Below, piece after piece: positions 16,044-62,152 of a DNA stretch of 64,000 nt. The position numbers and the translations under genes are program-made. Origin of the DNA: a virus (lineage: Duplodnaviria > Caudoviricetes); IMG/VR virus record IMGVR_UViG_3300011006_000010, positions 54,569 to 118,568 of that record, one strand, 5' to 3'. The notes under the pieces are model-generated. The model made no database searches and was not told the origin of the DNA. It was given only the letters and a program-made list of their open reading frames with translations. Every line of letters starts with the position of its first letter. The first letter of the stretch is position 1.

Positions 16044-17475
16044 AGGTGTCTATGTACGATATAGCAGCTGCTTCATCTTCCTCTATGGCTATCTCGACTG
16101 CCCGTACTGCCGTTGCGATAAGTTTCTCCGCCTGTCTGCGAAGAGCAAAGGATTTCTGTACCTTTTCGGCTATGTCTTTTTGTGACATATCGTCAATAAG
16201 TGGCAAAGGCATGGATAGTAAAAAGTCTTTCGATATAGCTGTCAAAATTGTTCCGGAGCAACGCTGTTTCATAAGTGCTTGAATCGGTTCAGACTTAAAT
16301 AGCACCAACAAAGTCTCGGAGTTGATGTGATCCGAATCAATAACATAAAAACCAGTTGAGCAAAGCGCGTTGTGGTAATCATCCGTTATCAGTGCGCAGC
16401 TTTGCAGCGAGCCTTCGATAGACGATATAATCACTTGACCTTTATTGACTTTTCTCCTTGCTCTTGTAGGTAAGTCTTTGCCATGGATTTTTTCAACGCC
16501 ATAGACATTACCAAACATACCTACATTTGCCAACTCTATATATTGATAATCCTTTTTCTCATCAGGCACGTAATTGGCATCATGAATGTCGCATAATGTT
16601 CCGACCGATTCTGTGGTATTTAATCTTTTTTCTATGTCCTCATACTTCGGTTGGTAATATTCCGCATCCAGTCTGCCTGAGGTGCCGAAGGATTCTGAAA
16701 GTAACTTTTCAGAAATGCCGTTTTTTGACACCATTGCTGAATCAAATCCTAAAGCAGACAAAAGAAATGTTTTTGCCTCTTCATGTACTTCAGATTCCTT
16801 TACCACCTTATCATGAGCAGACTGTATTACTTCCTTGATTTGCTCCTGTAAGCAGGATGAAAAAATCGGAATAAGTAATTGATCAAAATCCTCCAGCAAA
16901 AGTCCGGTCTGAGCTGCCCCGCGTTTGAATTTCTGAATTTGATTCTGACCATACTTCGTCTTTATGAAGGTAAGGAGTACTTCCGGGAGAATATCTGTTT
17001 GTTTGCTTCTCATGATTGCCAACTTACAACTGCAAGTTGCTTCGGAGTCCGATGTGACAATTGCACTATTGCCGACTATCGCACCCACAATAGACATAAG
17101 CACATCTCCACGTTTAAGATGTGACCTTTTCATGTGCGGATGATTAAACGTATTCGTGTCTATACAAACTGGCGACGCCGCTTCGATAAATATATTGTAT
17201 ATATCCTGACCTCGGTAATATGGGATACCTTTATTGCGGAAAGCATCGCTAATCGACATATGATTTCCGTCAGAGACAGAAAATGATGCCGTAAAAGACT
17301 GCAATGTTTTTTCTTTTAGGAAATCGGACACTTCCAGATTTCCTTTTTTATAGAATTCTGCATCTATGCGAGCAGTTCTCTCAAGAGCAGAAAGATATAT
17401 TTCGCTGCACTCCAGCCCATCCATCAAAGCCTTGTATTTGGCTTCATCGAAAGGTTCAATGGATGGGCTTATCAA
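16033..17475 (-). CDS. Restriction-modification specificity (HsdS-like) subunit
   Basis: Two TRD halves, each preceded by 'RIDAEFY/RLDAEYY'; 'GDVLMSIVGAIVG'. Confidence 0.85.
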   Translation of the reverse strand: MISPSIEPFDEAKYKALMDGLECSEIYLSALERTARIDAEFYKKGNLEVSDFLKEKTLQSFTASFSVSDGNHMSISDAFRNKGIPYYRGQDIYNIFIEAASPVCIDTNTFNHPHMKRSHLKRGDVLMSIVGAIVGNSAIVTSDSEATCSCKLAIMRSKQTDILPEVLLTFIKTKYGQNQIQKFKRGAAQTGLLLEDFDQLLIPIFSSCLQEQIKEVIQSAHDKVVKESEVHEEAKTFLLSALGFDSAMVSKNGISEKLLSESFGTSGRLDAEYYQPKYEDIEKRLNTTESVGTLCDIHDANYVPDEKKDYQYIELANVGMFGNVYGVEKIHGKDLPTRARRKVNKGQVIISSIEGSLQSCALITDDYHNALCSTGFYVIDSDHINSETLLVLFKSEPIQALMKQRCSGTILTAISKDFLLSMPLPLIDDMSQKDIAEKVQKSFALRRQAEKLIATAVRAVEIAIEEDEAAAISYIDTCVD

Positions 17476-19451
17476 AAAAAACTTAAACCTTCCTTTTTTG
17501 CAAATTCAGCAAATGCCTCGGCAATACCGTCCTCTGTCAGACCGTCATGATTATACAAATCATGATCGACTATCATATGACCATGTTCGTCGAGGATGAT
17601 ATGCCCCTCTCTGTCGGTACGCACAATCTTATCGCCGGAACTATCCTTGCTCGGCTTCCGCATAGTGGCAAAGAATATAGGATAATCGTCCTTCTTCGGG
17701 CAGAGGGCATCATCCCACTTCTGGATGAACAGCACCGATGTCTTAGTCCCAGTATGCGGCTTGAATACATTTCCGTGCAATCCGACCACAGCAAGAATAC
17801 GGCAGCGTTCCAAGATAAAGTCACGGATGTACTTGTCGCTCGCATTATTAAACCGTCCCTGCGGCAGTACAATCGCCATTCGACCGCCAGGCTTCAGGAA
17901 AGAGAGGTTTCTTTCGATAAAGAGAATGTCCCTTCCGACCTTACTCCGATATTTACCTTTGGCATTTTTACCCAGCTCATATTTTGCGATGATACGGCTC
18001 TCTTTGATGTCCCCGGCAAAGGGCGGATTCGCCATAACGATATCGAAATTAAAATCCCGGTTCTCGTCCCTATTCGCGCGAAGCGCACGCAAGCCGCGCC
18101 AGCCCTCAAAGTAGATATCCTGCCACGCCTCATCCTTTGTGGTATCATCCCAACGCTCATAATCAAGCGTATTCAGATGCATGACGTTCGTCCTGCCGTC
18201 TCCGGCAATTAGATTCAGTGTTCTTGCCACACGAACAGCCTTTTCGTCAAAGTCAATGGCAAACACATTTTTGCGGACGTAATCCTCACATTCGGCAGGC
18301 TTCTTTTCTGTGGTGAACAGATGACTCTGCTCGATACCTTTCTCTTTCAGAATGCTTTTCCATACATAGAAGATTGTATGGACAGGAAAGCCGCATGAAC
18401 CCGAAGCAGTGTCTATCATTTTCTCTGTCTTTTTTGGATTGAGCATACGGACGCACATATCAATCACATAGCGCGGCGTAAAGAACTGTCCCTTTTCGCC
18501 TTTTTGCGACTTGCTCATCAAATATTCGAAGGCATCGTCCACTACATCCAAATTGGAGTTGAACAGTTTCACGTCCTGCAGAGATGATACACACACCGAA
18601 AGGTGGGACGGCGTGAGCGCAATAACGGCATCGGACGCAAATACGCCCGGCCACTTATCTTTCGCCTTTTCAAACAGCGATTGGATATTTGCTTTCAAGT
18701 CTTCGTCCGTATCGCCATAATTACGGAATTCGAGCATCCGGCTGTGATCTCTGCCGCTCTCCATTTCGTCATATAGCTTGGTATAGATGAGCTTGAATAC
18801 TTCCTCGAAAACATCCACTCCGGCATTCGCAAGGACTTCATCCTCCATTTCCTCAATCAGCCCCTTAAGGGACTTCTTTTCGCTAACGAGCTTGTCCTTT
18901 TTCACAAGGTCATCAATCGTCCAGCGTTCGGTCAGGATATCCTTCAGCTTCTGCGTGGCAGTAGGGATGTTCGGAATATCCTCAAAATAATTGGGATCTT
19001 TCCTATGGTAGAAAGAAATCTGCTGACCGTTTGTCCATACGCCCATTGTCGCGCCTGTGGCATTACAGTAGGACTTAAGCTGTTCCTTTCCATCAGAGAG
19101 CTTCGGTTTTTTTACTTCTATAATGATGTATTCCACATTAGGATGTGACTTTTCAAAAATCACTATATCGGCGCGTTTTATCTCTCGTCCGAAATGGATA
19201 TGACGCTCCAGTTCCATCTGGTCGGTGGAATAGCCGTAATCATGAACGAGTGTGTAAATATAGAGCTGCCGAACAGCCTCCTCTGGCGTCAGCTTGATTT
19301 CCTTCTGCCGCACCAAGCATTGGATATAAGGTACATCTGCGCCTTTAACGGTTTTTGTGTAAATCTTGCTTTCAATTGCCTGTACAGCCTCATTGCTGAA
19401 AAGAGAGCTGTTATGGCTGCTGTCTTTGAAAAGTTGTTCCAGTGAATACAT
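17472..19451 (-). CDS. Fused restriction endonuclease (HsdR_N-like) and N6-adenine methyltransferase
   Basis: 'PEEAVRQ','RADIV','IEVK','QLKSY','WTNG'; 'GQFFTPRYV','DTASGSCGF','NPPF'. Confidence 0.9.
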   Translation of the reverse strand: MYSLEQLFKDSSHNSSLFSNEAVQAIESKIYTKTVKGADVPYIQCLVRQKEIKLTPEEAVRQLYIYTLVHDYGYSTDQMELERHIHFGREIKRADIVIFEKSHPNVEYIIIEVKKPKLSDGKEQLKSYCNATGATMGVWTNGQQISFYHRKDPNYFEDIPNIPTATQKLKDILTERWTIDDLVKKDKLVSEKKSLKGLIEEMEDEVLANAGVDVFEEVFKLIYTKLYDEMESGRDHSRMLEFRNYGDTDEDLKANIQSLFEKAKDKWPGVFASDAVIALTPSHLSVCVSSLQDVKLFNSNLDVVDDAFEYLMSKSQKGEKGQFFTPRYVIDMCVRMLNPKKTEKMIDTASGSCGFPVHTIFYVWKSILKEKGIEQSHLFTTEKKPAECEDYVRKNVFAIDFDEKAVRVARTLNLIAGDGRTNVMHLNTLDYERWDDTTKDEAWQDIYFEGWRGLRALRANRDENRDFNFDIVMANPPFAGDIKESRIIAKYELGKNAKGKYRSKVGRDILFIERNLSFLKPGGRMAIVLPQGRFNNASDKYIRDFILERCRILAVVGLHGNVFKPHTGTKTSVLFIQKWDDALCPKKDDYPIFFATMRKPSKDSSGDKIVRTDREGHIILDEHGHMIVDHDLYNHDGLTEDGIAEAFAEFAKKEGLSFF

Positions 19452-38097: not shown

Positions 38098-38110
38098 TTT
38101 TTCTCCTTTT

Positions 38111-38432
38111 GGATTGCCATCTTATCCTTGTCATAGTCGTTAATAATTGGGAGGTATAAAATAGTAGCGTTTTGTCTTGGTTAAGTCGATTAGTTATAAA
38201 GATGAAAATAACTATTATGAATTAAATTCTAACTATGGCAAGGACAAGACGACAATCCTTTTATACAACCTTCTTCCTACAAAACTGCTAACCAAGCTAT
38301 TTTTTGATAGTACCCCCTAACTTTTTCAATGCCGACACATCAGCAGATTTATTTTTTTGGTTATACTATTCGGGAAAGGATAGCTGATGTATGATTGAAA
38401 TCCTGATCAGCAGCTTGGTAAGAAGAAGGTTG
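38111..38432 (-). ncRNA. Putative structured RNA (two long stem-loop domains)
   Basis: 27-bp stem 38111-38137/38232-38258 with three G.U pairs on the - strand; second domain 38266-38432 with 11-, 8- and 8-bp helices. Confidence 0.5.
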
Positions 38433-38439
38433 AAATAAC

Positions 38440-49935: not shown

Positions 49936-50066
49936 ACAACGCCCTCCTTATATGTCCATATTACACATTCTGATTTTTAAAAATTGATGACTGAGTTTTA
50001 AAAATTTATCATTCTAATTTACCACCCAGTCATCAATCACTACATTTATGTACGTATTACACCTTT

Positions 50067-50095
50067 ATTATACACAAATAAAACTAGGTTTTCAA
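50067..50095 (-). promoter_or_regulatory. sigmaA promoter with an operator-like motif at the start site (50049-50063)
   Basis: TTGAAA...TGTGTATAAT followed by GGTGTAATACGTACA. Confidence 0.6.
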
Positions 50096-50201
50096 ACCTT
50101 TTCTTAAATTATTTAAGATTTCTTTCTTAAGACTTCTTTCTTTCACCAATCCCTTGAACATTTCAAGCACCTCATCCCCAGAAATTTCAAACGCCTATTT
50201 A

Positions 50202-50552
50202 CTATTTTAATCCATATGATTTGAACATTACTTCATAAGTATTTACTCTTTCAAGTTCTGTTGCATCATCATGTTCATCTTCAAAGAACATTTGAAATTT
50301 ATATCCCTGCGCATTTAGAATCTTTGCAATTTGAGACACTTTCAATAACTGCAAAGCAAACTTCTCTGTCTCTTCAATGCTGCCAGCAGAATCCTGTTTC
50401 CAAACAATTGTAAATTCTACGTCTCCAATAGAATCATCATACTCATATTCATTGCTAGCATGTACTTCTAAAGACATATTAGTGTGGTGTAAGATAGTAG
50501 CTAAAGCCTCTTTCATTGCGATTAAATTTTTCTGATTTAAAATCTTTCCCAT
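50202..50552 (-). CDS. Hypothetical early protein
   Basis: GGGAG RBS. Confidence 0.55.
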   Translation of the reverse strand: MGKILNQKNLIAMKEALATILHHTNMSLEVHASNEYEYDDSIGDVEFTIVWKQDSAGSIEETEKFALQLLKVSQIAKILNAQGYKFQMFFEDEHDDATELERVNTYEVMFKSYGLK

Positions 50553-50562
50553 AATCTTCTCC

Positions 50563-50754
50563 CTAATTTTCCATATTCCCTAAAAATAATTCACGAATGC
50601 GAGATTCCAAATCCGCATAATCAGTTCCATAAATATTAGAAGCAAAATCATCATCCTCTTTTTCTGGATTTTCAATTACAATTTCCTTTACTTCAAGAAA
50701 GTCTTCAAATGTTTCAATAATACTTCCAATCAATTCATTTAATCCTGTTTTCAT
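50563..50754 (-). CDS. Small acidic early protein
   Basis: Start MKTGLN after AGGAGG. Confidence 0.55.
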   Translation of the reverse strand: MKTGLNELIGSIIETFEDFLEVKEIVIENPEKEDDDFASNIYGTDYADLESRIRELFLGNMEN

Positions 50755-50767
50755 TTTTCTTTCCTCC

Positions 50768-51067
50768 TTAAAACTTTTCAAAATAGAACTTACTGCAAGC
50801 ATCGTCTGTTGAATAATATTCTGTTCTTAACATTTCAACTTCAACTTCTACACTTACTACACATTTTTTAACTACTACTTCCATTGTCTTTTTGCAAACT
50901 TCAGGTGACATTACTTCAACCCATTGAGCACCATCTACAAAATCGTAACTCTTCAAATATCTGCCACAATTATCCATTGGCGTTGTGTCACAATGGAAAT
51001 CGCAATCATGTCTTCCAAAAAATGCTGTTTTTTCTTTAATGTATTCTTTATATGTTGTAGTTGTCAT
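50768..51067 (-). CDS. Hypothetical early protein
   Basis: GGAGGAG RBS. Confidence 0.55.
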   Translation of the reverse strand: MTTTTYKEYIKEKTAFFGRHDCDFHCDTTPMDNCGRYLKSYDFVDGAQWVEVMSPEVCKKTMEVVVKKCVVSVEVEVEMLRTEYYSTDDACSKFYFEKF

Positions 51068-51078
51068 TTCTTCTCCTC

Positions 51079-51339
51079 CTATTTCATTGCTTCGCCCATT
51101 GCTTTTAAATCTTTCAACGTATAACCGCTACCAGGAGCTGTGCTTAATACAAAACGGTCACCTTTAAATAAATTATTCCAACTTTCATATGCACCAAGTG
51201 AAGACGACCACTCTCTTTTAATAACAACATCCGTGCCTTCAAGAACTCTTTCGTAAATCTGATTGTTTTCATCTCTTTTAATAATCCATTTCATTTCTTC
51301 AACTCCTTTGCTATATCCGTTTTTTACCAAGATTTCCAT
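51079..51339 (-). CDS. Hypothetical early protein
   Basis: ORF; start uncertain. Confidence 0.5.
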   Translation of the reverse strand: MEILVKNGYSKGVEEMKWIIKRDENNQIYERVLEGTDVVIKREWSSSLGAYESWNNLFKGDRFVLSTAPGSGYTLKDLKAMGEAMK

Positions 51340-51358
51340 TTCCTGTTTTCCATTTTTC

Positions 51359-52033
51359 CTACTTCAAGATACAATCTTCATCAAAAACTTTTTCGTTGGC
51401 GATAACCACGTAAAGCCCTTTCTTACATTTTCTTACAGTTCTATTGTAATTTTCGCCTTCAATTTCTACCTCAACAGACGTTCCTTTTTCAAACATTTTT
51501 GATTTGTACTTGATCCCAAACTCAGATTCATTACACAGAATTTCAAAATACTTGCCATTAACTTTCTTTTTTCCAAAATGATTGTCAGGATAGAACCAAT
51601 TTCCTTTTCTAACACCGTAATCACGTACTTCACATCCGTCCTCAACCCATCTACATTTCAATTTTTCTGGCTTGATTTCTACTTTTTTCTCTCTTGGTTT
51701 TCTTGGCTCCCTGCTAGCGATGATCTCATCAACATTTAATGACTTAAGCCCATCAACATCTACAGAGTAGAAATACGTAACATTGTAATGTTTGCCCGTG
51801 TGATGCCATGAAGAAAGCGTTAATAAATTATCTTTCATCTCTTCGACAGTAAGCTTTGCAATTTCTTCTAAATCCAGATCTAAATCATAATCATATACAA
51901 TATCCAAAATCGAATCCATAATTTTTGCCTTAGTCCATTTGCTCAGAGGCTTTTCGCCATTACCATAAGCTTCTGCTGCTCTAACGCTCATACTTCTACC
52001 AACATAACCCTTATTCACGTTCCACATTTTCAA
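51359..52033 (-). CDS. Hypothetical early protein
   Basis: AAAGGAG RBS; 'GYVGRSMSVRA..AY..GEKPLSKW','SSWHHT'. Confidence 0.6.
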   Translation of the reverse strand: MKMWNVNKGYVGRSMSVRAAEAYGNGEKPLSKWTKAKIMDSILDIVYDYDLDLDLEEIAKLTVEEMKDNLLTLSSWHHTGKHYNVTYFYSVDVDGLKSLNVDEIIASREPRKPREKKVEIKPEKLKCRWVEDGCEVRDYGVRKGNWFYPDNHFGKKKVNGKYFEILCNESEFGIKYKSKMFEKGTSVEVEIEGENYNRTVRKCKKGLYVVIANEKVFDEDCILK

Positions 52034-52051
52034 TTTTCTCCTTTCTAATTT

Positions 52052-52507
52052 CTAAAATTCATAATCATAATAATAATCTGCATGTCCAAAAGATACGTTC
52101 GCTCTGTTATATTTGGTCTGCTTCCCTTTTTCCTTGATTTTATCAATATCAAATCCTGCAAGTACGACTCTCACTTTGAAATCGAAATCTTCATCAATTC
52201 CTTTGATATCGTCAATAGTTAATGTTTTAGTGAAGCACCAATACTTTCCACGTTTTGTCATTTCTAAAATTGGATTTTCTTCATTGCTGAACAGAACCCA
52301 GTTGTTGTCGAAATGAAAGTCGCCAACATGCTCATGATCAAGTTCTCTTACCTTGACATGTTTCTGATCTTTCACTTCAACCACTTCGTAAGCACGTCTA
52401 TCAGTATACAAATATTCTGTCATACCTGTTCCAACTTTGATTTCGTCAACCAGATTTTTATTTTCTTCCAATCTATTAAAGAAACTGCCATACCATTCTT
52501 TTGCCAT
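52052..52507 (-). CDS. Hypothetical early protein
   Basis: AAAGGAG RBS; 'VGTGMT..LYTDR.AYEV'. Confidence 0.6.
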   Translation of the reverse strand: MAKEWYGSFFNRLEENKNLVDEIKVGTGMTEYLYTDRRAYEVVEVKDQKHVKVRELDHEHVGDFHFDNNWVLFSNEENPILEMTKRGKYWCFTKTLTIDDIKGIDEDFDFKVRVVLAGFDIDKIKEKGKQTKYNRANVSFGHADYYYDYEF

Positions 52508-52555
52508 ATTTAAATTCTCCTTTCTTATTTACAAAAGTTTGTTAATGAAATTTGT

Positions 52556-53074
52556 TTAACGAATTCTCTTTAAGGCTCCGCCACAACCACCACCATGCAC
52601 GAATTCATTAGGATATCTAATCAATTTGCACATTCTGTTTCTGCCAAGCTCATATCCACACTTTTCACAAACGACAGCGTATTTTGTTTTTGGCTGAGCG
52701 ATTCCAAATTCTTCTGAGCTTGATGTTCTTGTAATCTTGATTTCTGGATATCTGTTCATAATTTTTCTAGCATCCTTTTTCCAATTCCCACCATGATGTT
52801 CTCCTGGATTAGCAGCATGAAGAATCTCGTGGATGATAGTTGACTTTACTGCATTCAGATCAGAATCATCACCAAGAATAGATTTACTGATTTCGATAGC
52901 ACAACAAATTACGTATTTCTGATTTTTATTATCGTATTCCCAATGATACTTGCATGCTCCCCAACGGCTTGTAGCTCTGCTATTAACCGTTACGCTCTTG
53001 ATAGGTACAGGAGTGATTCCACAGTTGACCACCATTTCATAACATTCATCATAAAGCATTTTTAAATTCTTCAT
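52556..53074 (-). CDS. SprT-like zinc metalloprotease
   Basis: 'RWGAC','HEILH','HHGGNWK','CEKCG'. Confidence 0.75.
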   Translation of the reverse strand: MKNLKMLYDECYEMVVNCGITPVPIKSVTVNSRATSRWGACKYHWEYDNKNQKYVICCAIEISKSILGDDSDLNAVKSTIIHEILHAANPGEHHGGNWKKDARKIMNRYPEIKITRTSSSEEFGIAQPKTKYAVVCEKCGYELGRNRMCKLIRYPNEFVHGGGCGGALKRIR

Positions 53075-53077
53075 TTT

Positions 53078-53347
53078 CTAATCTCCTTTTCTAATTTCTT
53101 TAAGAATCCCTAAATCATCATAGAACTTAATCAGATCTTTATATACAAATTCATTAATCAAATCTACATAGAACGTGCCAACAATTCCGTTATAATCGAA
53201 ATCAATAATTCTCAATTTTCTGAATTTCTCAGGAAGAGTATCCGATTCAGAAGCACAGATTACTCTTTTTGAGAAATTGTCATAGATGCTGACATAGATT
53301 TTGATACCTGTGTCAAGAAATTTTCCAATCGTCATTTTTATCACCAA
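53078..53347 (-). CDS. Hypothetical early protein
   Basis: Operon context. Confidence 0.5.
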   Translation of the reverse strand: MVIKMTIGKFLDTGIKIYVSIYDNFSKRVICASESDTLPEKFRKLRIIDFDYNGIVGTFYVDLINEFVYKDLIKFYDDLGILKEIRKGD

Positions 53348-53628
53348 TATCTATCAACGATGATGAATCTATCCTTGCACCATAAGACATCCCATTCATC
53401 ATCTTCTTCAATTGCACGAATGCATTCGTCTAAATCATCTTTATCATATTCATCATGAAATCCTGCAAATTTCAACAGACCCTTGGCGTCTACGGCTGTG
53501 AATGCCCCAAAGTCATCCACTCGATATTCTTCACAATCCCAATCGAGAATGTAATTTTCAATTTCCTTGACTTCATCTTCTGAAAAACCACATCCTCTTA
53601 AGTATTTTTTAACGTTTTCTAATTTCAT
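53341..53628 (-). CDS. Hypothetical acidic protein
   Basis: Start MKLENV after GAGGAGG; the longer track ORF runs into the ncRNA unit. Confidence 0.55.
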   Translation of the reverse strand: MKLENVKKYLRGCGFSEDEVKEIENYILDWDCEEYRVDDFGAFTAVDAKGLLKFAGFHDEYDKDDLDECIRAIEEDDEWDVLWCKDRFIIVDRYW

Positions 53629-53688
53629 GGACAATTCCTCCTCTTTTTTCATTTGTTTAAAAATATTGACGTAGCTATATGTTTTTTT

Positions 53689-53851
53689 GAAAATCAACAA
53701 ACTTGGTGTCTTCCTTTACTGCTGTGAAGCAAATTTCTGAAAGAAATTTGCCTGGATGCCCGTCATCGCGCGACGGGCATAATTCTTCTTCCACGAAGTC
53801 TTGAAGAAGAATTATTGTTTATCTCTTTTCAAATATCCGACACTGGATTTC
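53689..53851 (-). ncRNA. RT-associated structured ncRNA unit A
   Basis: Conserved 40-nt motif, three perfect hairpins (53729-53751, 53756-53780, 53781-53813) and closing stem AACAA/TTGTT; homologous to units B and C. Confidence 0.7.
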
Positions 53852-53863
53852 AAATTCTAAATT

Positions 53864-54478
53864 CTAATATTCTTCAAATACATACACCACTTTCATATGG
53901 AATGCAGATTCAATATCATCGATCATCTGAGTTGTGGTCAGCGAAATCAAATCTTTAGCAAGACTATTCAACTCAACGTTCATGATTTCAGCCACTTCTG
54001 AATAGATCTGTTCAATTCTTGCGTAAATCTCTTCTTCTAAGGCTAACGGGGTTGAGCAAAGAAGAGTCTTCTTTCCATTTACAATCACCAATTCAGAATC
54101 ATAATCGCTTGAAAATTTCCATACTCCATAGTTAATTGCATCTTTTAAAGAATTGAATGTGTTTACTTTGCTCTGTTCATTTCCAGAGACAACATATGAA
54201 TACATTCTGACATTTGGAAACGCATCTTCATCTTTGATTTCTGAATAACTTAAACATTCTACAATTCCATATTTTTTCAAATCATCAACTGTACAATGAC
54301 CTCTGCTGATTGCAAAACGTTCAATTGCCCTTTTTGCAAATTTGATATTGTCGTTATACATTTCCTCGGCAACTGCCTTGATAAAAATATCAAATGCGTC
54401 TTCCCATTCATTAGTTTCTGTAACATAAGGAAGTGTCTCGCCGTCCATATACCAATCTACTCTCCATCTAATTCCCAT
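53864..54478 (-). CDS. Hypothetical early protein
   Basis: AGGAGG RBS. Confidence 0.6.
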   Translation of the reverse strand: MGIRWRVDWYMDGETLPYVTETNEWEDAFDIFIKAVAEEMYNDNIKFAKRAIERFAISRGHCTVDDLKKYGIVECLSYSEIKDEDAFPNVRMYSYVVSGNEQSKVNTFNSLKDAINYGVWKFSSDYDSELVIVNGKKTLLCSTPLALEEEIYARIEQIYSEVAEIMNVELNSLAKDLISLTTTQMIDDIESAFHMKVVYVFEEY

Positions 54479-54496
54479 TTTTCGTTCCTCCTTTTT

Positions 54497-54811
54497 TTAG
54501 AAAATCCAATTCAAATTTTTAAATAATCCGTATTCTTCAGCTTCTTCATATGTATAGCAATCAGCGCAACCGTTTCCTTTAACGGTTCTTTCTCTGATGG
54601 CTTTCTTTAAATCATCGAGTTTTGTATATTCAACACTTTCTTCAGAACACACTCCCCTTCCATCGTCATACCAAAAATTAGTTGTATAAGTGTAATCACC
54701 GATTCTTGAGGACTTCTCTTTCCAATAATTTCTGTAAATTGTAAATCCCTCATACGTTTCTAATTCCTCACTTTTGTACTCAAAGCCTGAGATATGCCAA
54801 GTACAAATCAT
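54497..54811 (-). CDS. Hypothetical early protein
   Basis: Operon context. Confidence 0.55.
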   Translation of the reverse strand: MICTWHISGFEYKSEELETYEGFTIYRNYWKEKSSRIGDYTYTTNFWYDDGRGVCSEESVEYTKLDDLKKAIRERTVKGNGCADCYTYEEAEEYGLFKNLNWIF

Positions 54812-55201
54812 TTAACTCACCACCTTGTAGAATTTTAATTTTCTAGTTTTATAGATTTCGTCTTCCAATTTTCCAATTTTCATAACATAAATTTCTTTAT
54901 AGTTCTTTTTGCTTTCTTCAAGTCTAATTTCGATAAATGGCTTATGGTCAACTCCATAGTCACGGATGCCAAACCAATATTCATCCAACAATTCATCATG
55001 ATCAGCATCATGTTTAAAACTGCTCCAATCAATAAATAAATCACTTGCATAGTTTTCGCATAAAGCTCCAACCCTCTGAATGAGATGGGTGAGAATACTA
55101 TGTGTGTTCCCATCATAATAAGCAGTGTGCGAGATTTCATTCTCGACCCTAGTAAGTTCAGTCTCTTTTACCAATTCCAATTTCAAATCTTCAAGTTTCA
55201 T
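54812..55201 (-). CDS. Hypothetical early protein
   Basis: AAGGAG RBS. Confidence 0.55.
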   Translation of the reverse strand: MKLEDLKLELVKETELTRVENEISHTAYYDGNTHSILTHLIQRVGALCENYASDLFIDWSSFKHDADHDELLDEYWFGIRDYGVDHKPFIEIRLEESKKNYKEIYVMKIGKLEDEIYKTRKLKFYKVVS

Positions 55202-55219
55202 AAATTCATCTCTCCTTTT

Positions 55220-55528
55220 CTATTCGTAATATCCAAGCATTTCTTTTAATAAAGCCGTCGTATAAGGAAAATCAAATTCATAATTGTCAAGTTCTTGTAA
55301 TTCTGAATACAAAAGCTGAATCGGATATGTTTCAGAATCTACTGATTCGATCCTGCTTGGCTTAACCTCTTCAATAAATTCTAATAATTGAAGAACCTCA
55401 TCGGGATTTGGGCTTAATCTACGAATCATCGGTGTCGAGGTGTCAATGATGTAATACTCGTCACCGTACATCTCGACCAAAAGATATTCGTCCATTTCAA
55501 AGATGGTGCTCATTTTAATAGTAGTCAT
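55220..55528 (-). CDS. Hypothetical acidic protein
   Basis: Probable start MTTIKM after GAGGAAGG. Confidence 0.5.
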   Translation of the reverse strand: MTTIKMSTIFEMDEYLLVEMYGDEYYIIDTSTPMIRRLSPNPDEVLQLLEFIEEVKPSRIESVDSETYPIQLLYSELQELDNYEFDFPYTTALLKEMLGYYE

Positions 55529-55619
55529 TTTTTCTTTCCTTCCTCGCTCTGCATTTTCATAAGGACTTGCGACCTTCATTGGTTGCATTAAGGAAGTGGA
55601 AATCCACTTTCCATTTTTC

Positions 55620-55753
55620 AAAAATCAGCAAGCACGGTGTCTTTCTATACTGTAGTGAAATTAATAAATGTCATTTATCAATTTTCAAATTTCAAATTAT
55701 TAGACCGCTATGGCGTGTCTAATAATTTGGCTCGCTCTCTTTTTATAGATTCT
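55620..55753 (-). ncRNA. RT-associated structured ncRNA unit B
   Basis: Conserved motif, hairpins 55657-55686 and 55693-55729, closing stem AGCAAGC/GCTCGCT. Confidence 0.65.
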
Positions 55754-55755
55754 TA

Positions 55756-55925
55756 GAAAATCAACGAATGCGATACCTTTCTATAATGATTTGATGCAAA
55801 TTTCTGAAAGAAATTTGCCAGCTGGATCTAGGATCCAGGCTGCCTCCTTATATTCAGGAGAGCTGTGGAATACAGCTCACCTGAATATAAATTCGCCTTT
55901 TTTCTAAATCTCGGTACTAGATTCT
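55756..55925 (-). ncRNA. RT-associated structured ncRNA unit C
   Basis: Conserved motif, hairpins 55796-55818, 55822-55838, 55848-55890, closing stem AACGAAT/ATTCGCC. Confidence 0.7.
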
Positions 55926-55960
55926 ATTTTTTAAAAGTTCAACACTAACTTATTGAATTC

Positions 55961-57016
55961 TTACTGTTTTTCGATCAGGTTCTTGAATTCATAATAGAGT
56001 TTGTATTCTTCTTCTTTTCTTAAAAGCTCATCCAAATGTTCATCTAATGCAGCCAACTTTACTTTCACATTCGTCTGATAATTCTTATAGACTTTTGCTC
56101 TCTCTGTGTTGATGATGTAATCTCTATAGGCAACGTATGTAAGGAAGACTTTCATACGCTGAACGTATTTATTTGAGATTTTCATACCGTAAATTGGTTT
56201 ACGATATTTTACATATTCACGGACGTTGCACTCAGAAATGTAGCGTCTGGCAATGATTTCATAATTATATGTTCCCTTTGGATAATCCACACTATCACCA
56301 TGAAGAACATTCACATAACAAGAGTCGTCACGACGGTAATGATTTTTGTCACAATGAATTACAAATTTCTCAAGTTCATCATTCATAACGTCCTTAAACC
56401 ATTCATCACTAAAGATTTTCTTTTTCATTCTTTTGAAATACTCGTCTTCAAAACTTCTCTTACTGTTGACGTAGCAATAAAGAGAATCCAAATTCTTCAT
56501 CACAACATTATTAGGGTTGTCTTTTCTAAATGCATCTTCAAATTTCTGATTTTTCATATTTTCGTATTTGTAGAACATACGGCAATATTTGAGTTCGTCG
56601 TTTGTGAGGTGTACATTTCTATAAGAAGTAAAATCTCTAAAGTCTACAATGAATTCAGAGAGGTCTTCGTCTGTGCTTAACAAAATGGCTTTTACTCTTT
56701 CATTTTTTGGCAAATCCTTCAAATGGTTATTAGGTGTACGTGTTACACATCCGAAGATAATCTTATATTCATCATCTTTAATCTTGTCTTCAATGAAGAT
56801 TTTTGCTACGAAATCATTAACCACTTCAAAACGATCGCTCGTCGCCCAACTCAAATAACGAGTTTCAAATTCCGTAGGATTGTCACATGCAACTAAAGTT
56901 GTAAAGCCTGGATGGTAAATCAAATAATGTACAGTGTCATATGCTGTTTCATGTAATACGATAATGCCTAATACGTTTGCAAATCTAACAACTGTCCCAA
57001 CTTTTAAAATGTTCAT
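55961..57016 (-). CDS. Hypothetical 351-aa protein between the RT operon and the ncRNA units
   Basis: AAGGAG RBS; no recognisable motif. Confidence 0.6.
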   Translation of the reverse strand: MNILKVGTVVRFANVLGIIVLHETAYDTVHYLIYHPGFTTLVACDNPTEFETRYLSWATSDRFEVVNDFVAKIFIEDKIKDDEYKIIFGCVTRTPNNHLKDLPKNERVKAILLSTDEDLSEFIVDFRDFTSYRNVHLTNDELKYCRMFYKYENMKNQKFEDAFRKDNPNNVVMKNLDSLYCYVNSKRSFEDEYFKRMKKKIFSDEWFKDVMNDELEKFVIHCDKNHYRRDDSCYVNVLHGDSVDYPKGTYNYEIIARRYISECNVREYVKYRKPIYGMKISNKYVQRMKVFLTYVAYRDYIINTERAKVYKNYQTNVKVKLAALDEHLDELLRKEEEYKLYYEFKNLIEKQ

Positions 57017-57052
57017 CTTATTTTCTCCTTTTTTCTTTTTAATTTTTGATTT

Positions 57053-57208
57053 TTACATTTTTGCTAACTGTGAACGGATTTCGTCAATCTGACTGTTTAA
57101 ACGACTATCTTCCTCGAAATCTCTTGCATCCCATCTATCCTTCATCTGAAGAATAAATTCTGCCGTTTCTAATTCATCTAACTTGTTTTCTAATTCTGCT
57201 TTGGTCAT
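57053..57208 (-). CDS. 51-aa coiled-coil peptide (not in the ORF track)
   Basis: MTKAELENKLDELETAEFILQMKDRWDARDFEEDSRLNSQIDEIRSQLAKM*; AAAGGAG RBS. Confidence 0.55.
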   Translation of the reverse strand: MTKAELENKLDELETAEFILQMKDRWDARDFEEDSRLNSQIDEIRSQLAKM

Positions 57209-57209
57209 A

Positions 57210-57656
57210 TTATCTCTCCTTTCTATATACCCAATGTTTTAAAACAACAAACTCTCTTCTGTCACGATTCTGATAGAAGAATCCATTTCCGAAATCCAAT
57301 TTTCCAAGTTTTCCAAGACACATCAGATAGGCTTCCAACTGTACTTCAGCGAACCATCTGTCTTCTGCATATACCAACTCAGAATCGCATTTCTCATTTT
57401 CAGGTTTGTAAACAAAGATTGGAAACTTTCTATCATTTCCGTTTGACTCATAATAGATTTCAAATAACATTTCTGCAGTACCCCAAGGGTCATCGAACAG
57501 ATCATCAATATAATAATTCTGTAAATCTGTTTCACTGATCAGGTCGTCATCTTCTTCAAAATCCCTTTCTCCAACCTTCATCACCCCTTTCTCAAAGTTG
57601 AATTTATAATTCTTGTGATTTCTAACTGCTGTTAACAATTCACTATAAAGACTCAA
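57210..57656 (-). CDS. RT-associated accessory protein (148 aa)
   Basis: Overlaps the RT 3' end by 14 nt; TTG start with GGGAG upstream. Confidence 0.6.
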   Translation of the reverse strand: MSLYSELLTAVRNHKNYKFNFEKGVMKVGERDFEEDDDLISETDLQNYYIDDLFDDPWGTAEMLFEIYYESNGNDRKFPIFVYKPENEKCDSELVYAEDRWFAEVQLEAYLMCLGKLGKLDFGNGFFYQNRDRREFVVLKHWVYRKER

Positions 57657-58923
57657 GTCTCATCATCTCCCTTCCCAAACATTCAAATAACTGTTTGTTG
57701 TACGTCAGACTGTTCCTCATACATTGCATTGTGTAGTACCCCTCAAGCCAATGTTTTCTGTATTTGTGAATCTTTTCCCCTTTGTCTCTGAAAAGGATGC
57801 CATCCTTTTTCGTCAGATTCGTATGCAAGCGACCTAATTTACGATATTTAAATTCTGAAGAATTGATTGCGTCTTTCACAAATTTCTCCATTTCATTGAT
57901 GTCGCTTTCGCAATTAATCGTTGAAAGACATGTACTCGCCCATGAGTGCTCGCCCAAATACATCCATCTAATGACAGACTTGAAAGCCGACTTTCTCTTA
58001 CGGTCTCTTGTCAACTCTAAAATCGTACTTTCAAAATTCCTGAATCTAGCAGGCGACAATGTGATTTTAGAACCCTTGAGTTCAAATCCTAAGAATTTAA
58101 TCCATTTGTCATAGTAGATTGACTCTACTTTCTTTGGATTCAGAGACACACCATACCGACCCATGATTTTTCTAGTTTCGGATTCGACTTTTGAATTTTC
58201 TGAATCGAGAACGATAACATCATCAGAGTAGCGATAGTACACTTTATATTTGTTGCTCATATATACGTCATAGTCATATGGAATGGCACACGCCAAGAAT
58301 GAAGCTACGGCACAACCCTGTTTCAATCCTTGATATTTCTTTCTGAGTTCGTTGTTCTCATCAAAGTACCAATCTTGATGATAATACTTGGACAGATAAT
58401 CAATAATGCAGTGTTCATCTTTTGGCAATTTGGATTTCATTTTTTCAAAAATCCCATCAATACATTCGATAGATACATTATCAAAGTATTTACTGAAATC
58501 CATCTTCACTCCAATGCGTTCTTTGACATCGCCATCACGAATTGCAATTTCCTCAATTTTAGATAATCGTCTTGAAATTTTCTTAATTACCATTTGAGTG
58601 CCGATACCTTTCTGATATGAAACACAATTTGGATGAATCATTTCGGGAAAAGCATCAAACAGACAGTCGTTGATAATCATCAGCATGATTCTATCGATTG
58701 GTTCGTTGATGTAGACCTGACGCATTTCTCCATTCTCTTTTGGAATCAGTCCAATATGAGGAGGGAAGATTTTATACGTACCTTCCCTAATACGTCCGTA
58801 GACCAAATTTCTAATCTGTGAATTATAGAAAACTGAAATCCATTTTGGATTAATATTTTTTTCTACACTTCTTTCTACGATTTTCTGGCAGCGATTTTCA
58901 TCGTTCATCATTTCCCAAAGCAT
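57643..58923 (-). CDS. Stand-alone reverse transcriptase (unknown-group type)
   Basis: 'IPKENGEMRQVYINEPIDR','MDFSKYFD','GLKQGCAVASFLA','YYRYSDD','LNPKK','IKFLGF'. Confidence 0.92.
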   Translation of the reverse strand: MLWEMMNDENRCQKIVERSVEKNINPKWISVFYNSQIRNLVYGRIREGTYKIFPPHIGLIPKENGEMRQVYINEPIDRIMLMIINDCLFDAFPEMIHPNCVSYQKGIGTQMVIKKISRRLSKIEEIAIRDGDVKERIGVKMDFSKYFDNVSIECIDGIFEKMKSKLPKDEHCIIDYLSKYYHQDWYFDENNELRKKYQGLKQGCAVASFLACAIPYDYDVYMSNKYKVYYRYSDDVIVLDSENSKVESETRKIMGRYGVSLNPKKVESIYYDKWIKFLGFELKGSKITLSPARFRNFESTILELTRDRKRKSAFKSVIRWMYLGEHSWASTCLSTINCESDINEMEKFVKDAINSSEFKYRKLGRLHTNLTKKDGILFRDKGEKIHKYRKHWLEGYYTMQCMRNSLTYNKQLFECLGREMMRLESL

Positions 58924-58929
58924 TCATAA

Positions 58930-59160
58930 TCACTTCCTTCCATATTTTTCATATTCTCCTAACGTCCACCATCTATAGATGCGTTCTTCGACATCGTTGC
59001 TTTCTAAAGGAAGATTTGTTCTAATCTTTCCCTTACTTGATGAGATATGAACCTGAATAGGTACGGTGAGTGTAAAGAAGTGATCGCCATGAATTTCATG
59101 ATGGTTTGAAATCATGGATTCGTCAAACAACAATTCTTCATTCAAATCTGGATATGCCAT
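58930..59160 (-). CDS. Hypothetical protein
   Basis: AAAGGAG RBS; directly upstream of the RT. Confidence 0.5.
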   Translation of the reverse strand: MAYPDLNEELLFDESMISNHHEIHGDHFFTLTVPIQVHISSSKGKIRTNLPLESNDVEERIYRWWTLGEYEKYGRK

Positions 59161-59184
59161 TTTTCTAAATCTCCTTTCTAATTT

Positions 59185-59472
59185 TTAATTTTTAAATCTT
59201 TCCCAATTCCATACAACTTCATCATAGATGTCAAGAAGTTCATATTCATAAATTCCTTGATACCTATGTTCGATAAGACCTACCTTAATCGCATCGTCAA
59301 GAATGTCTCTTGAGGCTTCATATGAGCCGATATTGTTCGCAAACACGCCGTCATTGATGATTGTGTCGGGTTCGTCAGCTTCGTCTCTAGCCTCAAAGTA
59401 ATACTTGTTCTCTTTTTTGTTTGGAAAGTGGCTTGCACCTGAAATGCAAATTTCAATTTTCTTAAATTTCAT
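59185..59472 (-). CDS. Hypothetical early protein
   Basis: AAGGAG RBS. Confidence 0.55.
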   Translation of the reverse strand: MKFKKIEICISGASHFPNKKENKYYFEARDEADEPDTIINDGVFANNIGSYEASRDILDDAIKVGLIEHRYQGIYEYELLDIYDEVVWNWERFKN

Positions 59473-59504
59473 TTTTCTATTCTCCTTTTTAAATTTTGTT
59501 TTCC

Positions 59505-59744
59505 CTAATCTTCTACAATGAAGCGACGACGAATACCGTTGTCTTCATAGATATCGATGGTTCTGGTGCCATCATAATTTGTCCTATCTGTAATTCTCTT
59601 AATCCATTTGCAAGAATGTAATTTTTTGTGTACGAGCATCCTTGCGAGGTCGCGATAGATTTTTTCGACGTCTTCAATCACACGAACTTCTGTGTAGACA
59701 CCATTCTTTTTGTCATAGACGATTTCAACTTCTTTTACTTTCAT
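59505..59744 (-). CDS. Hypothetical early protein
   Basis: AAGGAG RBS. Confidence 0.55.
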   Translation of the reverse strand: MKVKEVEIVYDKKNGVYTEVRVIEDVEKIYRDLARMLVHKKLHSCKWIKRITDRTNYDGTRTIDIYEDNGIRRRFIVED

Positions 59745-59763
59745 TTTTCTGTTTCTCCTTTTC

Positions 59764-60447
59764 TTATTTCAATTTTTCACGAACGAACTTAACGTTGTTC
59801 GCCTTGTAGCATTTCAAGCATGTGACACAATCTCTTGCTCCACAATTGATATCAATGTTGTGCTGATTGATATAGTCTTTTGTATAGACCGTGAAGACCT
59901 TATCAATGAAATTGAATTTTTTCAAAATTCCTTCATCGGTGATATTGAGTTTTGGACTTGAATACAGGATTTGCAAATTCTTAGGTTTTGCGTATCCCTT
60001 TTCATTAATCGCCCACTCAATAATGAATGGGTTCTTCGTCCAAAGTGCGAATGACTTATTCGGATTGTCATTGCAGATTTGGAAGTAGTTAGCTACTTGC
60101 GTAACGCTCTGCAGGTCGCCGAATGCTTCAAACCTGAAGTACTGCTTTGCGATTCTATCAAGAGACAAATGCTCTTTCAAAATTTCGGAATTCAGAATTT
60201 CAGTATTTGCAACATATTTTTTTACGAATTTCTGCCCGTAGAGCTTTTCAAGACCGAATACGTAACAGAAGTGGCAAATCAAATCCGTATTTTTTGAATA
60301 TTCAAGACAGAATTTATTTGCCTTGCGATAAGTAGAAAGGGAATAAATCCCTTTCATCTTGCCTGTGTGTTTTGTACACCAACGGACCCCCGTTGATTTC
60401 TCCCAAGACGCTTTTGGAAGTCTAGAATCTGAATTTAAATTTTTCAT
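59764..60447 (-). CDS. Gp88-like (radical-SAM-related) phage protein
   Basis: 'HTGKMKG..SLST','ICHFCY','FRFEAFGDL','FALWTKN','NCGARDC..CLKCY'. Confidence 0.55.
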   Translation of the reverse strand: MKNLNSDSRLPKASWEKSTGVRWCTKHTGKMKGIYSLSTYRKANKFCLEYSKNTDLICHFCYVFGLEKLYGQKFVKKYVANTEILNSEILKEHLSLDRIAKQYFRFEAFGDLQSVTQVANYFQICNDNPNKSFALWTKNPFIIEWAINEKGYAKPKNLQILYSSPKLNITDEGILKKFNFIDKVFTVYTKDYINQHNIDINCGARDCVTCLKCYKANNVKFVREKLK

Positions 60448-60451
60448 TTTT

Positions 60452-60808
60452 TCACTCCTTTTCTGTTTTGGTTTTCATAAATTCAACGGCTTCGTAGAAA
60501 CTGCCGAAATAGTGACCTTGCCACCATGATTGTGTGGTGTCGTTATACAACAAGACGACGACCCACGGTTCAAAGGTCGTACCTCGATTCAGAAGGGTGT
60601 AGTCGCCCTTTTGAAAAATCACTTTTAAATTTTCCCAATTTTTGACATACACCCTTAGGTCAATAAGGTCGTCTCTGCTGAAAGTGATGTCGCCTCTTGA
60701 ATAACGGACTAACACCTCTTTAAGCATGCTTTCGTCTCCATATCTGTATTCATCGAATGCGAATGCCCGTTCATAGGTTTCACGAACGCAAATTTTTCTT
60801 TTTCCCAT
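60452..60808 (-). CDS. Hypothetical early protein
   Basis: AAGGAG RBS; 'WWQGHYF'. Confidence 0.55.
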   Translation of the reverse strand: MGKRKICVRETYERAFAFDEYRYGDESMLKEVLVRYSRGDITFSRDDLIDLRVYVKNWENLKVIFQKGDYTLLNRGTTFEPWVVVLLYNDTTQSWWQGHYFGSFYEAVEFMKTKTEKE

Positions 60809-60881
60809 TTTCGATTCTCCTTTTAAATTTTTGAAATTTCAGCATTTAGGTGTAATATGTACATCTGTAGTTATGGTTCAT

Positions 60882-61097
60882 TCATGGTTTATAATTTAAT
60901 GCAATTATGCAGTCTTTATAAACATCGTCTGGGTCATCGTAGTCGGCTAAATCAAAGTCGTCACAAACGAATGCAGCTCTGCGAATGAGTTCTTTAATTT
61001 CATCTGTATCCCATGTGTCCTGAGCGTCAATTCTTTCCATGAGTTCGTCTAGTGTGATGTCTCTCAACTCACTTGGCGTTAAATTCTGATTTTTCAT
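60882..61097 (-). CDS. Small acidic early protein
   Basis: AAGGAG RBS. Confidence 0.55.
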   Translation of the reverse strand: MKNQNLTPSELRDITLDELMERIDAQDTWDTDEIKELIRRAAFVCDDFDLADYDDPDDVYKDCIIALNYKP

Positions 61098-61132
61098 TTT
61101 TTAGATTCTCCTTGTTCTCAATTTTTCAATTT

Positions 61133-61429
61133 TCATAATTTTATAGATGTAATGAAATAGTCGTCTGTTATATCTTCATAGAAATCTGCAGTTACGGTGA
61201 TATCTGCATTCTTCATTCTTTTCAGTTTCCCTTCTACATAGTCTGGGATTAAGAACGCAGATTTAAAATGTCTGCATTCATATGCGTTATCCGAAATTCT
61301 ATAGACTAAATTTCGGCTATAATTGACGTAGTAATAGACGGTCGTTGTTTTTAATTTGACAATTGCCATCAGTTCAATATCGGACGAACTGTCCAACTTG
61401 TATTTCAAAATCTCTAAATCTCTTTTCAT
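61133..61429 (-). CDS. Hypothetical early protein
   Basis: ORF with RBS. Confidence 0.5.
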   Translation of the reverse strand: MKRDLEILKYKLDSSSDIELMAIVKLKTTTVYYYVNYSRNLVYRISDNAYECRHFKSAFLIPDYVEGKLKRMKNADITVTADFYEDITDDYFITSIKL

Positions 61430-61653
61430 TTTTCTTTTCTAATCTCCTTTTAAGTTTTTGTTTTTTTTATTCTTCAGTTAATTGATCAAAATCTCTATAG
61501 CCGTACTGAACATAGAGAATGTCAGTTAATGACTTTTCATTGTATCCGTTTATACTTGTAACAACCTGAAGAGTTTCTTCGCTTGTGCCTAAGTCTAGAA
61601 GCACGTCCCACATTTCATCTAATTTCATTTTTTATCTCCTTTTTTGATTTCGC

Positions 61654-61704
61654 TTTTTAAAAGACAGCCTTTGAATTATCAGATTGAAAAATCAAGGACT
61701 GTCT
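61654..61704 (-). terminator. Putative intrinsic terminator
   Basis: On the - strand, AGACAGTCCTTGA...TCAAAGGCTGTCT-TTT. Confidence 0.5.
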
Positions 61705-61712
61705 AGTCTTAT

Positions 61713-61760
61713 TGTACAAATTACACCTTTTCATTTCAAGTAAAAAGTGTAATACGTACA
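61713..61760. promoter_or_regulatory. Inverted pair of 15-bp operator-like motifs
   Basis: TGTACAAATTACACC (61713-61727) and AGTGTAATACGTACA (61746-61760). Confidence 0.65.
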
Positions 61761-61840
61761 TCTTTAATTGTGAATTTCGTCATATTCATCCCAAATGTGA
61801 TGTCATTGTATGTATCGCAATCAATACAATTGCTACGGGG

Positions 61841-62152
61841 TTAAAACGCATATAACCTCTTTTTATTGAGAGTGGTTACGTATACCACCTCTCCTAGGTA
61901 CTTAAGCACTTCCCATTTAAAGGTGCCAATGGTGCGTATGATAACGTCTTCATAGATAGCTTCACACAAGCCCCATTTAAACACACACTCATCTACGAGT
62001 GTATCGATATAATCCTGCGAGAGGCTGATTACTTCGTGCCCTTCAGATTCAATGACTGCAGTCATCTCTTCGAGTTCTATGATGTCTTCAGTTTCATGGA
62101 TGTCATAGATGGAATCACCTTCCATCTCAATAATATAGATTGTTCTGTTCAT
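61841..62152 (-). CDS. Hypothetical acidic protein
   Basis: AGGAG RBS. Confidence 0.55.
   Translation of the reverse strand: MNRTIYIIEMEGDSIYDIHETEDIIELEEMTAVIESEGHEVISLSQDYIDTLVDECVFKWGLCEAIYEDVIIRTIGTFKWEVLKYLGEVVYVTTLNKKRLYAF

Follow-up and report, generated by a model that had tools for sequence, protein, structure and literature searches.

A UG27-type reverse transcriptase locus with three predicted hairpin RNA units and an orphan protein at the position of the canonical large helper in a 118-kb phage

The DNA analyzed here is a stretch of 64,000 nucleotides (nt; the window) corresponding to bases 54569-118568 of the 118,568-bp virus record IMGVR_UViG_3300011006_000010, which is 100% complete by CheckV. 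All coordinates are window positions unless prefixed with G000:C1, L002 or L004. The host replicon is a 118-kb gut-type phage that carries a reverse transcriptase (RT) system of the UG27 type amongst small early-type genes. Nearly all genes from 15 kb to 64 kb of the window lie on the minus strand, and on this strand the locus runs from the RT gene through open reading frames (ORFs) of 148, 51 and 351 amino acids (aa) into a 339-nt gap that holds two structured units, C and B, followed by four genes and a 163-nt gap that holds a third unit, A (Table 1).

UG27 is a widespread phage retroelement whose known product is short hairpin DNAs. The system is already in the literature. An outline from 2022 defines a class 2 UG/Abi RT that is carried by phages, together with the protein clusters 346 and 337 and a putative noncoding RNA (ncRNA) (Mestre et al. 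2022, NAR 50:6084, PMC9226505); a detailed account, with experiments, followed in Sept 2026 (bioRxiv 10.64898/2026.09.22.753630). According to the latter, the non-coding region is an array of ~150-nt units that are conserved in structure and variable in sequence, with a minority of ~135-nt units that lack a pseudoknot. Reverse transcription begins at the AUC of the motif AUCNNNNNNNUANAG and ends after a UUYA motif, and hairpin single-stranded DNAs (ssDNAs) of 50-100 nt were obtained by experiment from units in five UG27 systems. A YSAA mutant of the RT, or deletion of either helper, abolishes this complementary DNA (cDNA), and no complementarity of the cDNAs to phage or host genomes was found (bioRxiv 10.64898/2026.09.22.753630).

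An earlier note on this DNA (referred to below as the original prediction) had reported a complete 426-aa RT overlapping a 148-aa ORF, had taken the latter for a partner gene and had guessed that the RT might belong to UG27; all of this was confirmed. By PADLOC, the RT matched the RT_UG27 profile over positions 6-419 of 420 (E 4.8e-125, 415.8 bits), as against 89 bits for the runner-up group, RT_UG26. Pfam RVT_1 was also matched (E 1e-17), and the motifs IPKENGEMR, DFSKYFD, GLKQG, YSDD and KFLGF could all be read. Judged by these matches, the enzyme belongs to UG27 and is full length. A scan of viral contigs returned no close relatives of it; its relatives came via protein search and contig look-ups, and amongst these the RT of a sister locus, L004 (ENA ERZ28653728, scaffold_1008, a 78-kb metagenomic phage contig), was 68% identical, compared with 40-47% for the RTs of canonical UG27 loci.

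The 148-aa ORF overlaps the RT stop by 14 nt. It matched PADLOC RTas346 over positions 2-145 of 147 (E 5.4e-13), a match by which it is identified as the catalogued UG27 small helper RTas346 (sORF). Its identity is 57% to the sORF of L004 and 22-31% to those of L002 (PQ571274.1, Bacteroides phage BS-TP1), L003 (MT835776), L006 and L007. The 51-aa ORF that follows had no family match and no counterpart in L004, and its membership in the system is doubtful.

Other classes of RT were tried and rejected. The group II intron RT model TIGR04416 scored 79.5 bits against a cut-off of 300, and no Rfam family, group II intron RNAs included, reached the threshold (gathering score) in the 64 kb. For retrons, NF038233 (Retron St85) gave 37.6 bits against a cut-off of 235, the PADLOC retron RT models reached only E 1e-5 to 1e-6, and the RT has no VTG motif. 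Drt2 (36 bits, cut-off 390) and Drt3a (21 bits, cut-off 200) fared no better. As regards diversity-generating retroelements, no repeat resembling a template/variable repeat (TR/VR) pair was present within 12 kb of the RT, and the long direct repeats at 50000-62000 comprised only the three units and low-complexity repeats of the ribosome-binding-site type. The original prediction had likewise found no VTG motif, TR/VR pair or intron domain V, and these absences stand. Its "retron-like" label does not, except as an analogy of output, i.e., a short hairpin ssDNA that an RT makes from part of a structured ncRNA. Retrons differ from the present locus in that here there would be several templates per RT, the templates lie downstream of the RT gene, and we saw neither a VTG motif nor an a1/a2 pair of repeats with a branching G. 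DRT2, DRT9 and DRT3 belong to the same UG/Abi superfamily and share an RT with a dedicated ncRNA template; they are, however, bacterial defence genes with long or concatemeric products, whereas UG27 is phage-borne and makes short hairpins.

The original prediction had further described three intergenic units with conserved ends, each with 2-3 near-perfect hairpins, and these were confirmed. A 32-nt degenerate consensus of the common unit end occurs exactly three times in the 64 kb (at 53690, 55621 and 55757), with none expected from 100 shuffles. A repeat search grouped the three copies over 70 nt, at 79% identity between A and C and 63% between A and B, and a profile of the 3' block returned only three strong matches in the 118.6-kb genome (E 4e-9 to 4e-8). 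Folding of the units against shuffles gave z of -5.4 to -7.2, with 2-3 near-perfect hairpins per unit. The units do lie on the strand of the RT, as had been stated, but they had been printed in plus-strand orientation; all genes at the locus lie on the minus strand, and the units are accordingly to be read as the reverse complement, by which the conserved 40-nt "end" becomes the 3' part of the RNA.

Table 1. Positions, strands and properties of the genes, RNA units and predicted cDNAs at the locus.
Feature	Position	Strand	Basis or properties
UG27 RT, 426 aa	57643..58923	-	PADLOC, Pfam and motifs; YSDD active site intact
Small helper (sORF, Mestre cluster 346), 148 aa	57210..57656	-	PADLOC RTas346
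51-aa ORF	57053..57208	-	ORF list; between sORF and 351-aa gene; good ribosome-binding site
351-aa orphan at large-helper (bORF) position	55961..57016	-	Position and L004 counterpart
ncRNA unit C	55752..55923	-	Fold -64 kcal/mol, z -6.3; three cargo hairpins
Unit C, 5' hairpin	55902-55920		Loop AGUACCG; unit also has a basal stem and a P1 of 7 bp
Unit C, start motif AUC-N7-UAUAG	55781-55795		Spacer AAA
Unit C, pseudoknot arm	55772-55777		GGUAUC
ncRNA unit B	55620..55744	-	Fold z -6.5; two cargo hairpins
Unit B, P1	55730-55736
Unit B, start motif UUC-N7-UAUAG	55645-55659		Spacer AAA
Unit B, 6-mer	55636-55641		GACACC
ncRNA unit A	53686..53848	-	Fold -57.3 kcal/mol, z -5.4; three cargo hairpins; 1.8 kb from B and C
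Unit A, 5' hairpin	53835-53848		Loop AGUGUC; basal stem
Unit A, P1	53817-53823
Unit A, start motif UUC-N7-UAAAG	53714-53728		Spacer GAA
Unit A, pseudoknot arm	53705-53710		GACACC
Predicted cDNA of unit A	53726..53816	+	DNA fold -26.4 kcal/mol (z -7.6) with three hairpins in tandem; length ~91 nt
Predicted cDNA of unit C	55793..55890	+	DNA fold -32.4 kcal/mol (z -9.7) with three hairpins in tandem; length ~98 nt
Predicted cDNA of unit B	55657..55730	+	DNA fold -17.3 kcal/mol (z -7.0) with two hairpins; length ~73-74 nt

In their minimum free energy folds, the units share a basal stem (GAAAA/UUUUC type), a 2x2 internal loop, the 7-bp helix P1, the cargo hairpins and a single-stranded segment containing the start motif, while a 5' hairpin is present in A and C only. 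P1 covaries between units (AUAAAC/GUUUGU, GCGAGC/GCUUGC, GCGAAU/AUUCGU), and in A and C the 5'-hairpin loop is complementary to the 6-mer that follows the motif. Spacing and UANAG are as published in all three units, and a UUUA sequence is found at the P1 junction of unit C. The published start-motif pattern (24 nt) had four matches in the window, compared with 0.69 expected; three of these correspond to the units, and the remaining one, inside the sORF gene, is a stray match. Separately, the 3'-block profile gave a weak fourth match at 54594-54619 (-), inside a 104-aa ORF (54497-54811), which reads CUC-N7-UAAAG-AAA-GCCAUC (nhmmer E 0.043). A complementary hairpin loop was not seen upstream of it, and it could be a chance match or what is left of a unit that a gene has overwritten.

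To compare the units with those of other loci, we examined the regions beside RT homologues. Arrays of the same grammar adjoin the RT homologues of L004, L003, L002 and L007, i.e., the co-occurrence that the original prediction had proposed to look for. In the canonical arrays (five units in L003, eight in L002), UANAG is followed by 3 nt and then by a 6-mer complementary to the upstream hairpin loop. Over 22 units from five loci, an exact complement of the 5-mer was present upstream in 18 cognate cases, as against 53 of 416 non-cognate ones (Fisher 3.5e-12, a value that is only indicative, as the 22 units are not independent). This exact-complement test, together with a column-wise pair count, replaced a looser descriptor search (motif plus any hairpin loop, G-U allowed), which was unspecific, with 10 genome matches compared with 9-24 in shuffles. 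By the pair count, the five pairs of the pseudoknot are formed in 25/25 cells across the six units of this phage and L004 (alignment A1), and three of the five pairs show compensatory changes; amongst 500 shuffles four were as good, and slid controls were 20-48% paired. In the six-unit MAFFT alignment, the 5' hairpin and the 3' block are the only parts in register, and covariation of P1 and the basal stem is accordingly given unit by unit and not by column. Because the same rule linking motif, 6-mer and hairpin loop governs the canonical arrays, and because the pseudoknots covary with those of L004, the three units are assigned by their sequence grammar to the UG27 kind of ncRNA.

The locus in L004 resembles the present one in having the RT, the sORF and a large protein in the same order, as well as three units of the same multi-hairpin build. 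Its array, however, is one tandem block ending in an intrinsic terminator (GCUGACAGAUGUCAGUUUUUU, L004:13440-13470), whereas here the array is split by the four small, unrelated genes at 53864-55621, which have no relatives in L004. The 51-aa ORF between the sORF and the large gene is confined to the present phage, and the cargo sequences of the two phages are unrelated. What the two share against other loci is the form of the cargo: in the 105 nt before the start triplet there are 2-3 separate hairpins here and in L004, compared with one long hairpin in L003, L002 and L007. In addition, five of the six units in this two-phage clade have UUC or CUC as the start triplet. As a separate observation on L002, the UG27 RT of BS-TP1 (L002:7962-9224) is annotated as "tail protein" in GenBank, and the unannotated 1.35-kb gap behind it (L002:9225-10573) holds the eight ncRNA units with the pattern ATC-N8-UANAG, which is one base beyond the published N7.

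Setting these results beside the published system, we find the same RT family and small helper family, a phage-borne location, units on the strand of the RT, and a closing helix around variable hairpin cargo. Unit C matches AUCNNNNNNNUANAG exactly. Extra units in a neighbouring intergenic region, as with unit A, are also mentioned in the preprint, and unit B, without a pseudoknot, resembles the published pseudoknot-less minority. Each unit RNA is predicted to fold into a long hairpin in which the basal stem and the 7-bp P1 close the cargo. The 3' side of the internal loop carries (A/U)UC-N7-UANAG-N3 followed by the 6-mer, which in units A and C pairs with the 5'-hairpin loop to form the pseudoknot. 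If the five UG27 systems studied by experiment (bioRxiv 10.64898/2026.09.22.753630) are a guide, the (A/U)UC triplet would be the point at which the RT, with its helper or helpers, begins DNA synthesis. The cargo would be copied as far as the P1 junction, so that three different ssDNAs of ~74, ~91 and ~98 nt would be released, each with 2-3 DNA hairpins. The original prediction had envisaged one RT reading several templates with a constant scaffold and variable cargo to yield different hairpin ssDNAs. Experiment bears this out for the five other systems, and the same motif and pseudoknot build is found here; at the present locus, transcription of the units and cDNA synthesis would follow by analogy.

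The boundaries of the predicted cDNAs were placed according to the mapping in the preprint, and the resulting lengths fall within the published range of 50-100 nt. Units A and C have an identical start-proximal 24-nt hairpin. In a short-word BLAST of the cargo against the phage genome and L004, nothing was found beyond this hairpin and one marginal 15-nt match, in agreement with the preprint, which found no complementarity to phage or host genomes. The original prediction had suggested that the hairpin DNAs are decoys for host proteins; that they bind or titrate such proteins is a sensible guess and no more. Two details of the cargo are recorded here as observations in their own right. The 15-nt exact match is between unit C cargo (cDNA positions 73-87) and G000:C1:21656-21670, outside the window (blastn-short E 0.008), and is probably due to chance. 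Secondly, a GGATCC/GATC palindrome occurs in cargo hairpins of both phages, in CUGGAUCCUAGAUCCAG (unit C, 55826-55842) and in CTGGATCCAG (L004:12941-12952), the rest of the cargo being unrelated. As DNA, these stems would present double-stranded restriction or methylase-type sites.

The main departure from the published system concerns the large helper, bORF (RTas337, cluster 337). At its usual position stands the 351-aa ORF, in which, as in the neighbouring ORFs, PADLOC gave no RTas337 match even at E 10. RTas337 was readily found in L003, L006 and L007, whose RTs are equally distant (1e-42 to 1e-155), and in BS-TP1, the positive control for the search (1.9e-131). The only relative of the 351-aa protein, in an exhaustive HMMER search over 1.84 billion representatives, is a 356-aa protein encoded at the same position in L004 (31% identity, E 8e-37). 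Searches of families, the PDB (at E 1) and Atlas clusters gave no match for the 351-aa protein; the ESM Atlas yielded no feature match of use, and its structure rows had TM of at most 0.30. An AlphaFold2 (AF2) model built on the two-row alignment was too poor for a fold search (mean pLDDT 45, pTM 0.36). The trio of RT, sORF and large ORF is contiguous in this phage and in L004, while the immediate flanks differ and 7 of 39 regional genes are common to both, which argues, with moderate strength, for the orphan as a member of the module. The orphan may stand in for the absent canonical large helper.

Taken together, the data make it likely, in our judgement, that the locus is a UG27-type RT system, i.e., a variant without the canonical large helper and with a three-unit array, with cDNA synthesis posited by analogy. 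A bolder proposal goes further. The core of UG27 would consist of the RT and the small helper, with an exchangeable third protein; in the two-phage clade, the non-homologous 351-aa orphan would have taken the large-helper role, and the template design would have changed with it, a string of 2-3 short hairpins with a UUC or CUC start taking the place of a single long hairpin. We put this forward tentatively, as a serious possibility that falls somewhat short of probable.

Several observations weigh against the reading as a working UG27 variant. RTas337 was not found anywhere in the 118.6-kb genome, including with a 35-sequence profile, and deletion of bORF abolished cDNA in two tested systems (bioRxiv 10.64898/2026.09.22.753630). 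The sole link of the 351-aa orphan to the system is its position in two related phages. Amongst the units, only C has the published AUC, A and B having UUC; unit B lacks the 5' hairpin and hence a pseudoknot partner; and the UUYA stop motif is not at the expected junction in A and B. Finally, cargo of 2-3 short tandem hairpins departs from the one long imperfect hairpin of canonical units, and the cDNA ends mapped in the preprint may therefore not hold precisely for this locus.

The first of these difficulties would vanish if the 351-aa protein were a true but extremely diverged RTas337 homologue, and the locus thus a canonical three-protein system. Its position after the sORF and before the array would fit, as would its length (351 and 356 aa in the two phages, compared with 268-365 aa for bORFs). 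The protein evolves fast, at 31% identity between the two phages as against 68% for the RT, and the AF2 model, at low confidence, is like bORF largely helical in its C-terminal two thirds. Sequence comparison, however, speaks against homology: BLASTP against bORFs gave E >3, hhalign against bORF profiles of 4 and 35 sequences gave probabilities of 0.24% and 0.42%, and the PADLOC and HMMER searches described above recovered no bORF relationship. We therefore regard this explanation as unlikely.

A second explanation, slightly less probable still, is that the locus is a decaying remnant, in which the essential large helper has been lost, cDNA is no longer made, and the RT and its scattered units are on their way out. 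The lack of RTas337 in a genome that is complete, together with the bORF deletions, would be accounted for in this way, and so would the modest number of units (three, compared with five to eight in L003 and L002), the array split by four genes, unit B without its 5' hairpin and the UUC start in two units. Decay does not sit well, however, with an RT that is full length and retains every catalytic motif, with a full-length sORF, or with unit helices that are all near perfect. Moreover, L004, with an RT of 68% identity, has the same trio and three units, and helices and pseudoknots are kept by compensatory changes. Such changes across two phages point to selection on RNA structure after loss of the canonical helper.

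That the units are mere transcription punctuation, with hairpins as terminators, the conserved 40-mer as a promoter or operator of the phage and no connection to the RT, is highly improbable: they do occupy intergenic gaps directly upstream of genes, the block of unit A ending ~45 nt before a start codon, but no terminator-like or promoter-like minus-strand site coincides with them, their hairpins lack sense U-tracts, the 118-kb genome, for all its dozens of operon boundaries, has the motif at no other place, long-range covarying helices and a pseudoknot are not promoter features, and the same grammar is found beside UG27 RTs in unrelated phages. A further hairpin 3' of unit B (55592-55611) also has no U-tract in the sense direction, and transcription therefore probably runs past unit B into the next genes.

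As a plain instance of UG27, the locus holds nothing new. The interest of the UG27 variant proposed here is that of a contrast case, i.e., an apparently intact natural system without a helper that is essential elsewhere. If cDNA is still made, the locus would show which parts are truly core, and if the 351-aa orphan is the third component, it would offer a second, unrelated third subunit for comparison. The cargo, if the proposed reading is true, can consist of several independent hairpins, which bears on the idea that the products act via structure and not sequence.

Downstream of the locus lie replication genes encoding Pol III alpha, a DnaB-like helicase and a DHH/RecJ-like protein, as well as an anaerobic nucleoside triphosphate reductase; no tRNAs were found. 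Between the DHH/RecJ-like gene and the next gene is a 342-nt gap without genes (38098-38439, -), with no Rfam match. A restriction-modification-like block at 15105-19451 (-) encodes a 659-aa protein with HSDR_N, N6_Mtase and Eco57I methylase domains and a 480-aa protein with a type I specificity domain. Lastly, the segment 28373-28840 (-), "intergenic" under the longest-ORF gene call, encodes a GIY-YIG-like motif (…IYIIKND…VYIGQ…) and probably represents a gene for a homing endonuclease, either one whose start is unusual or one that is broken.

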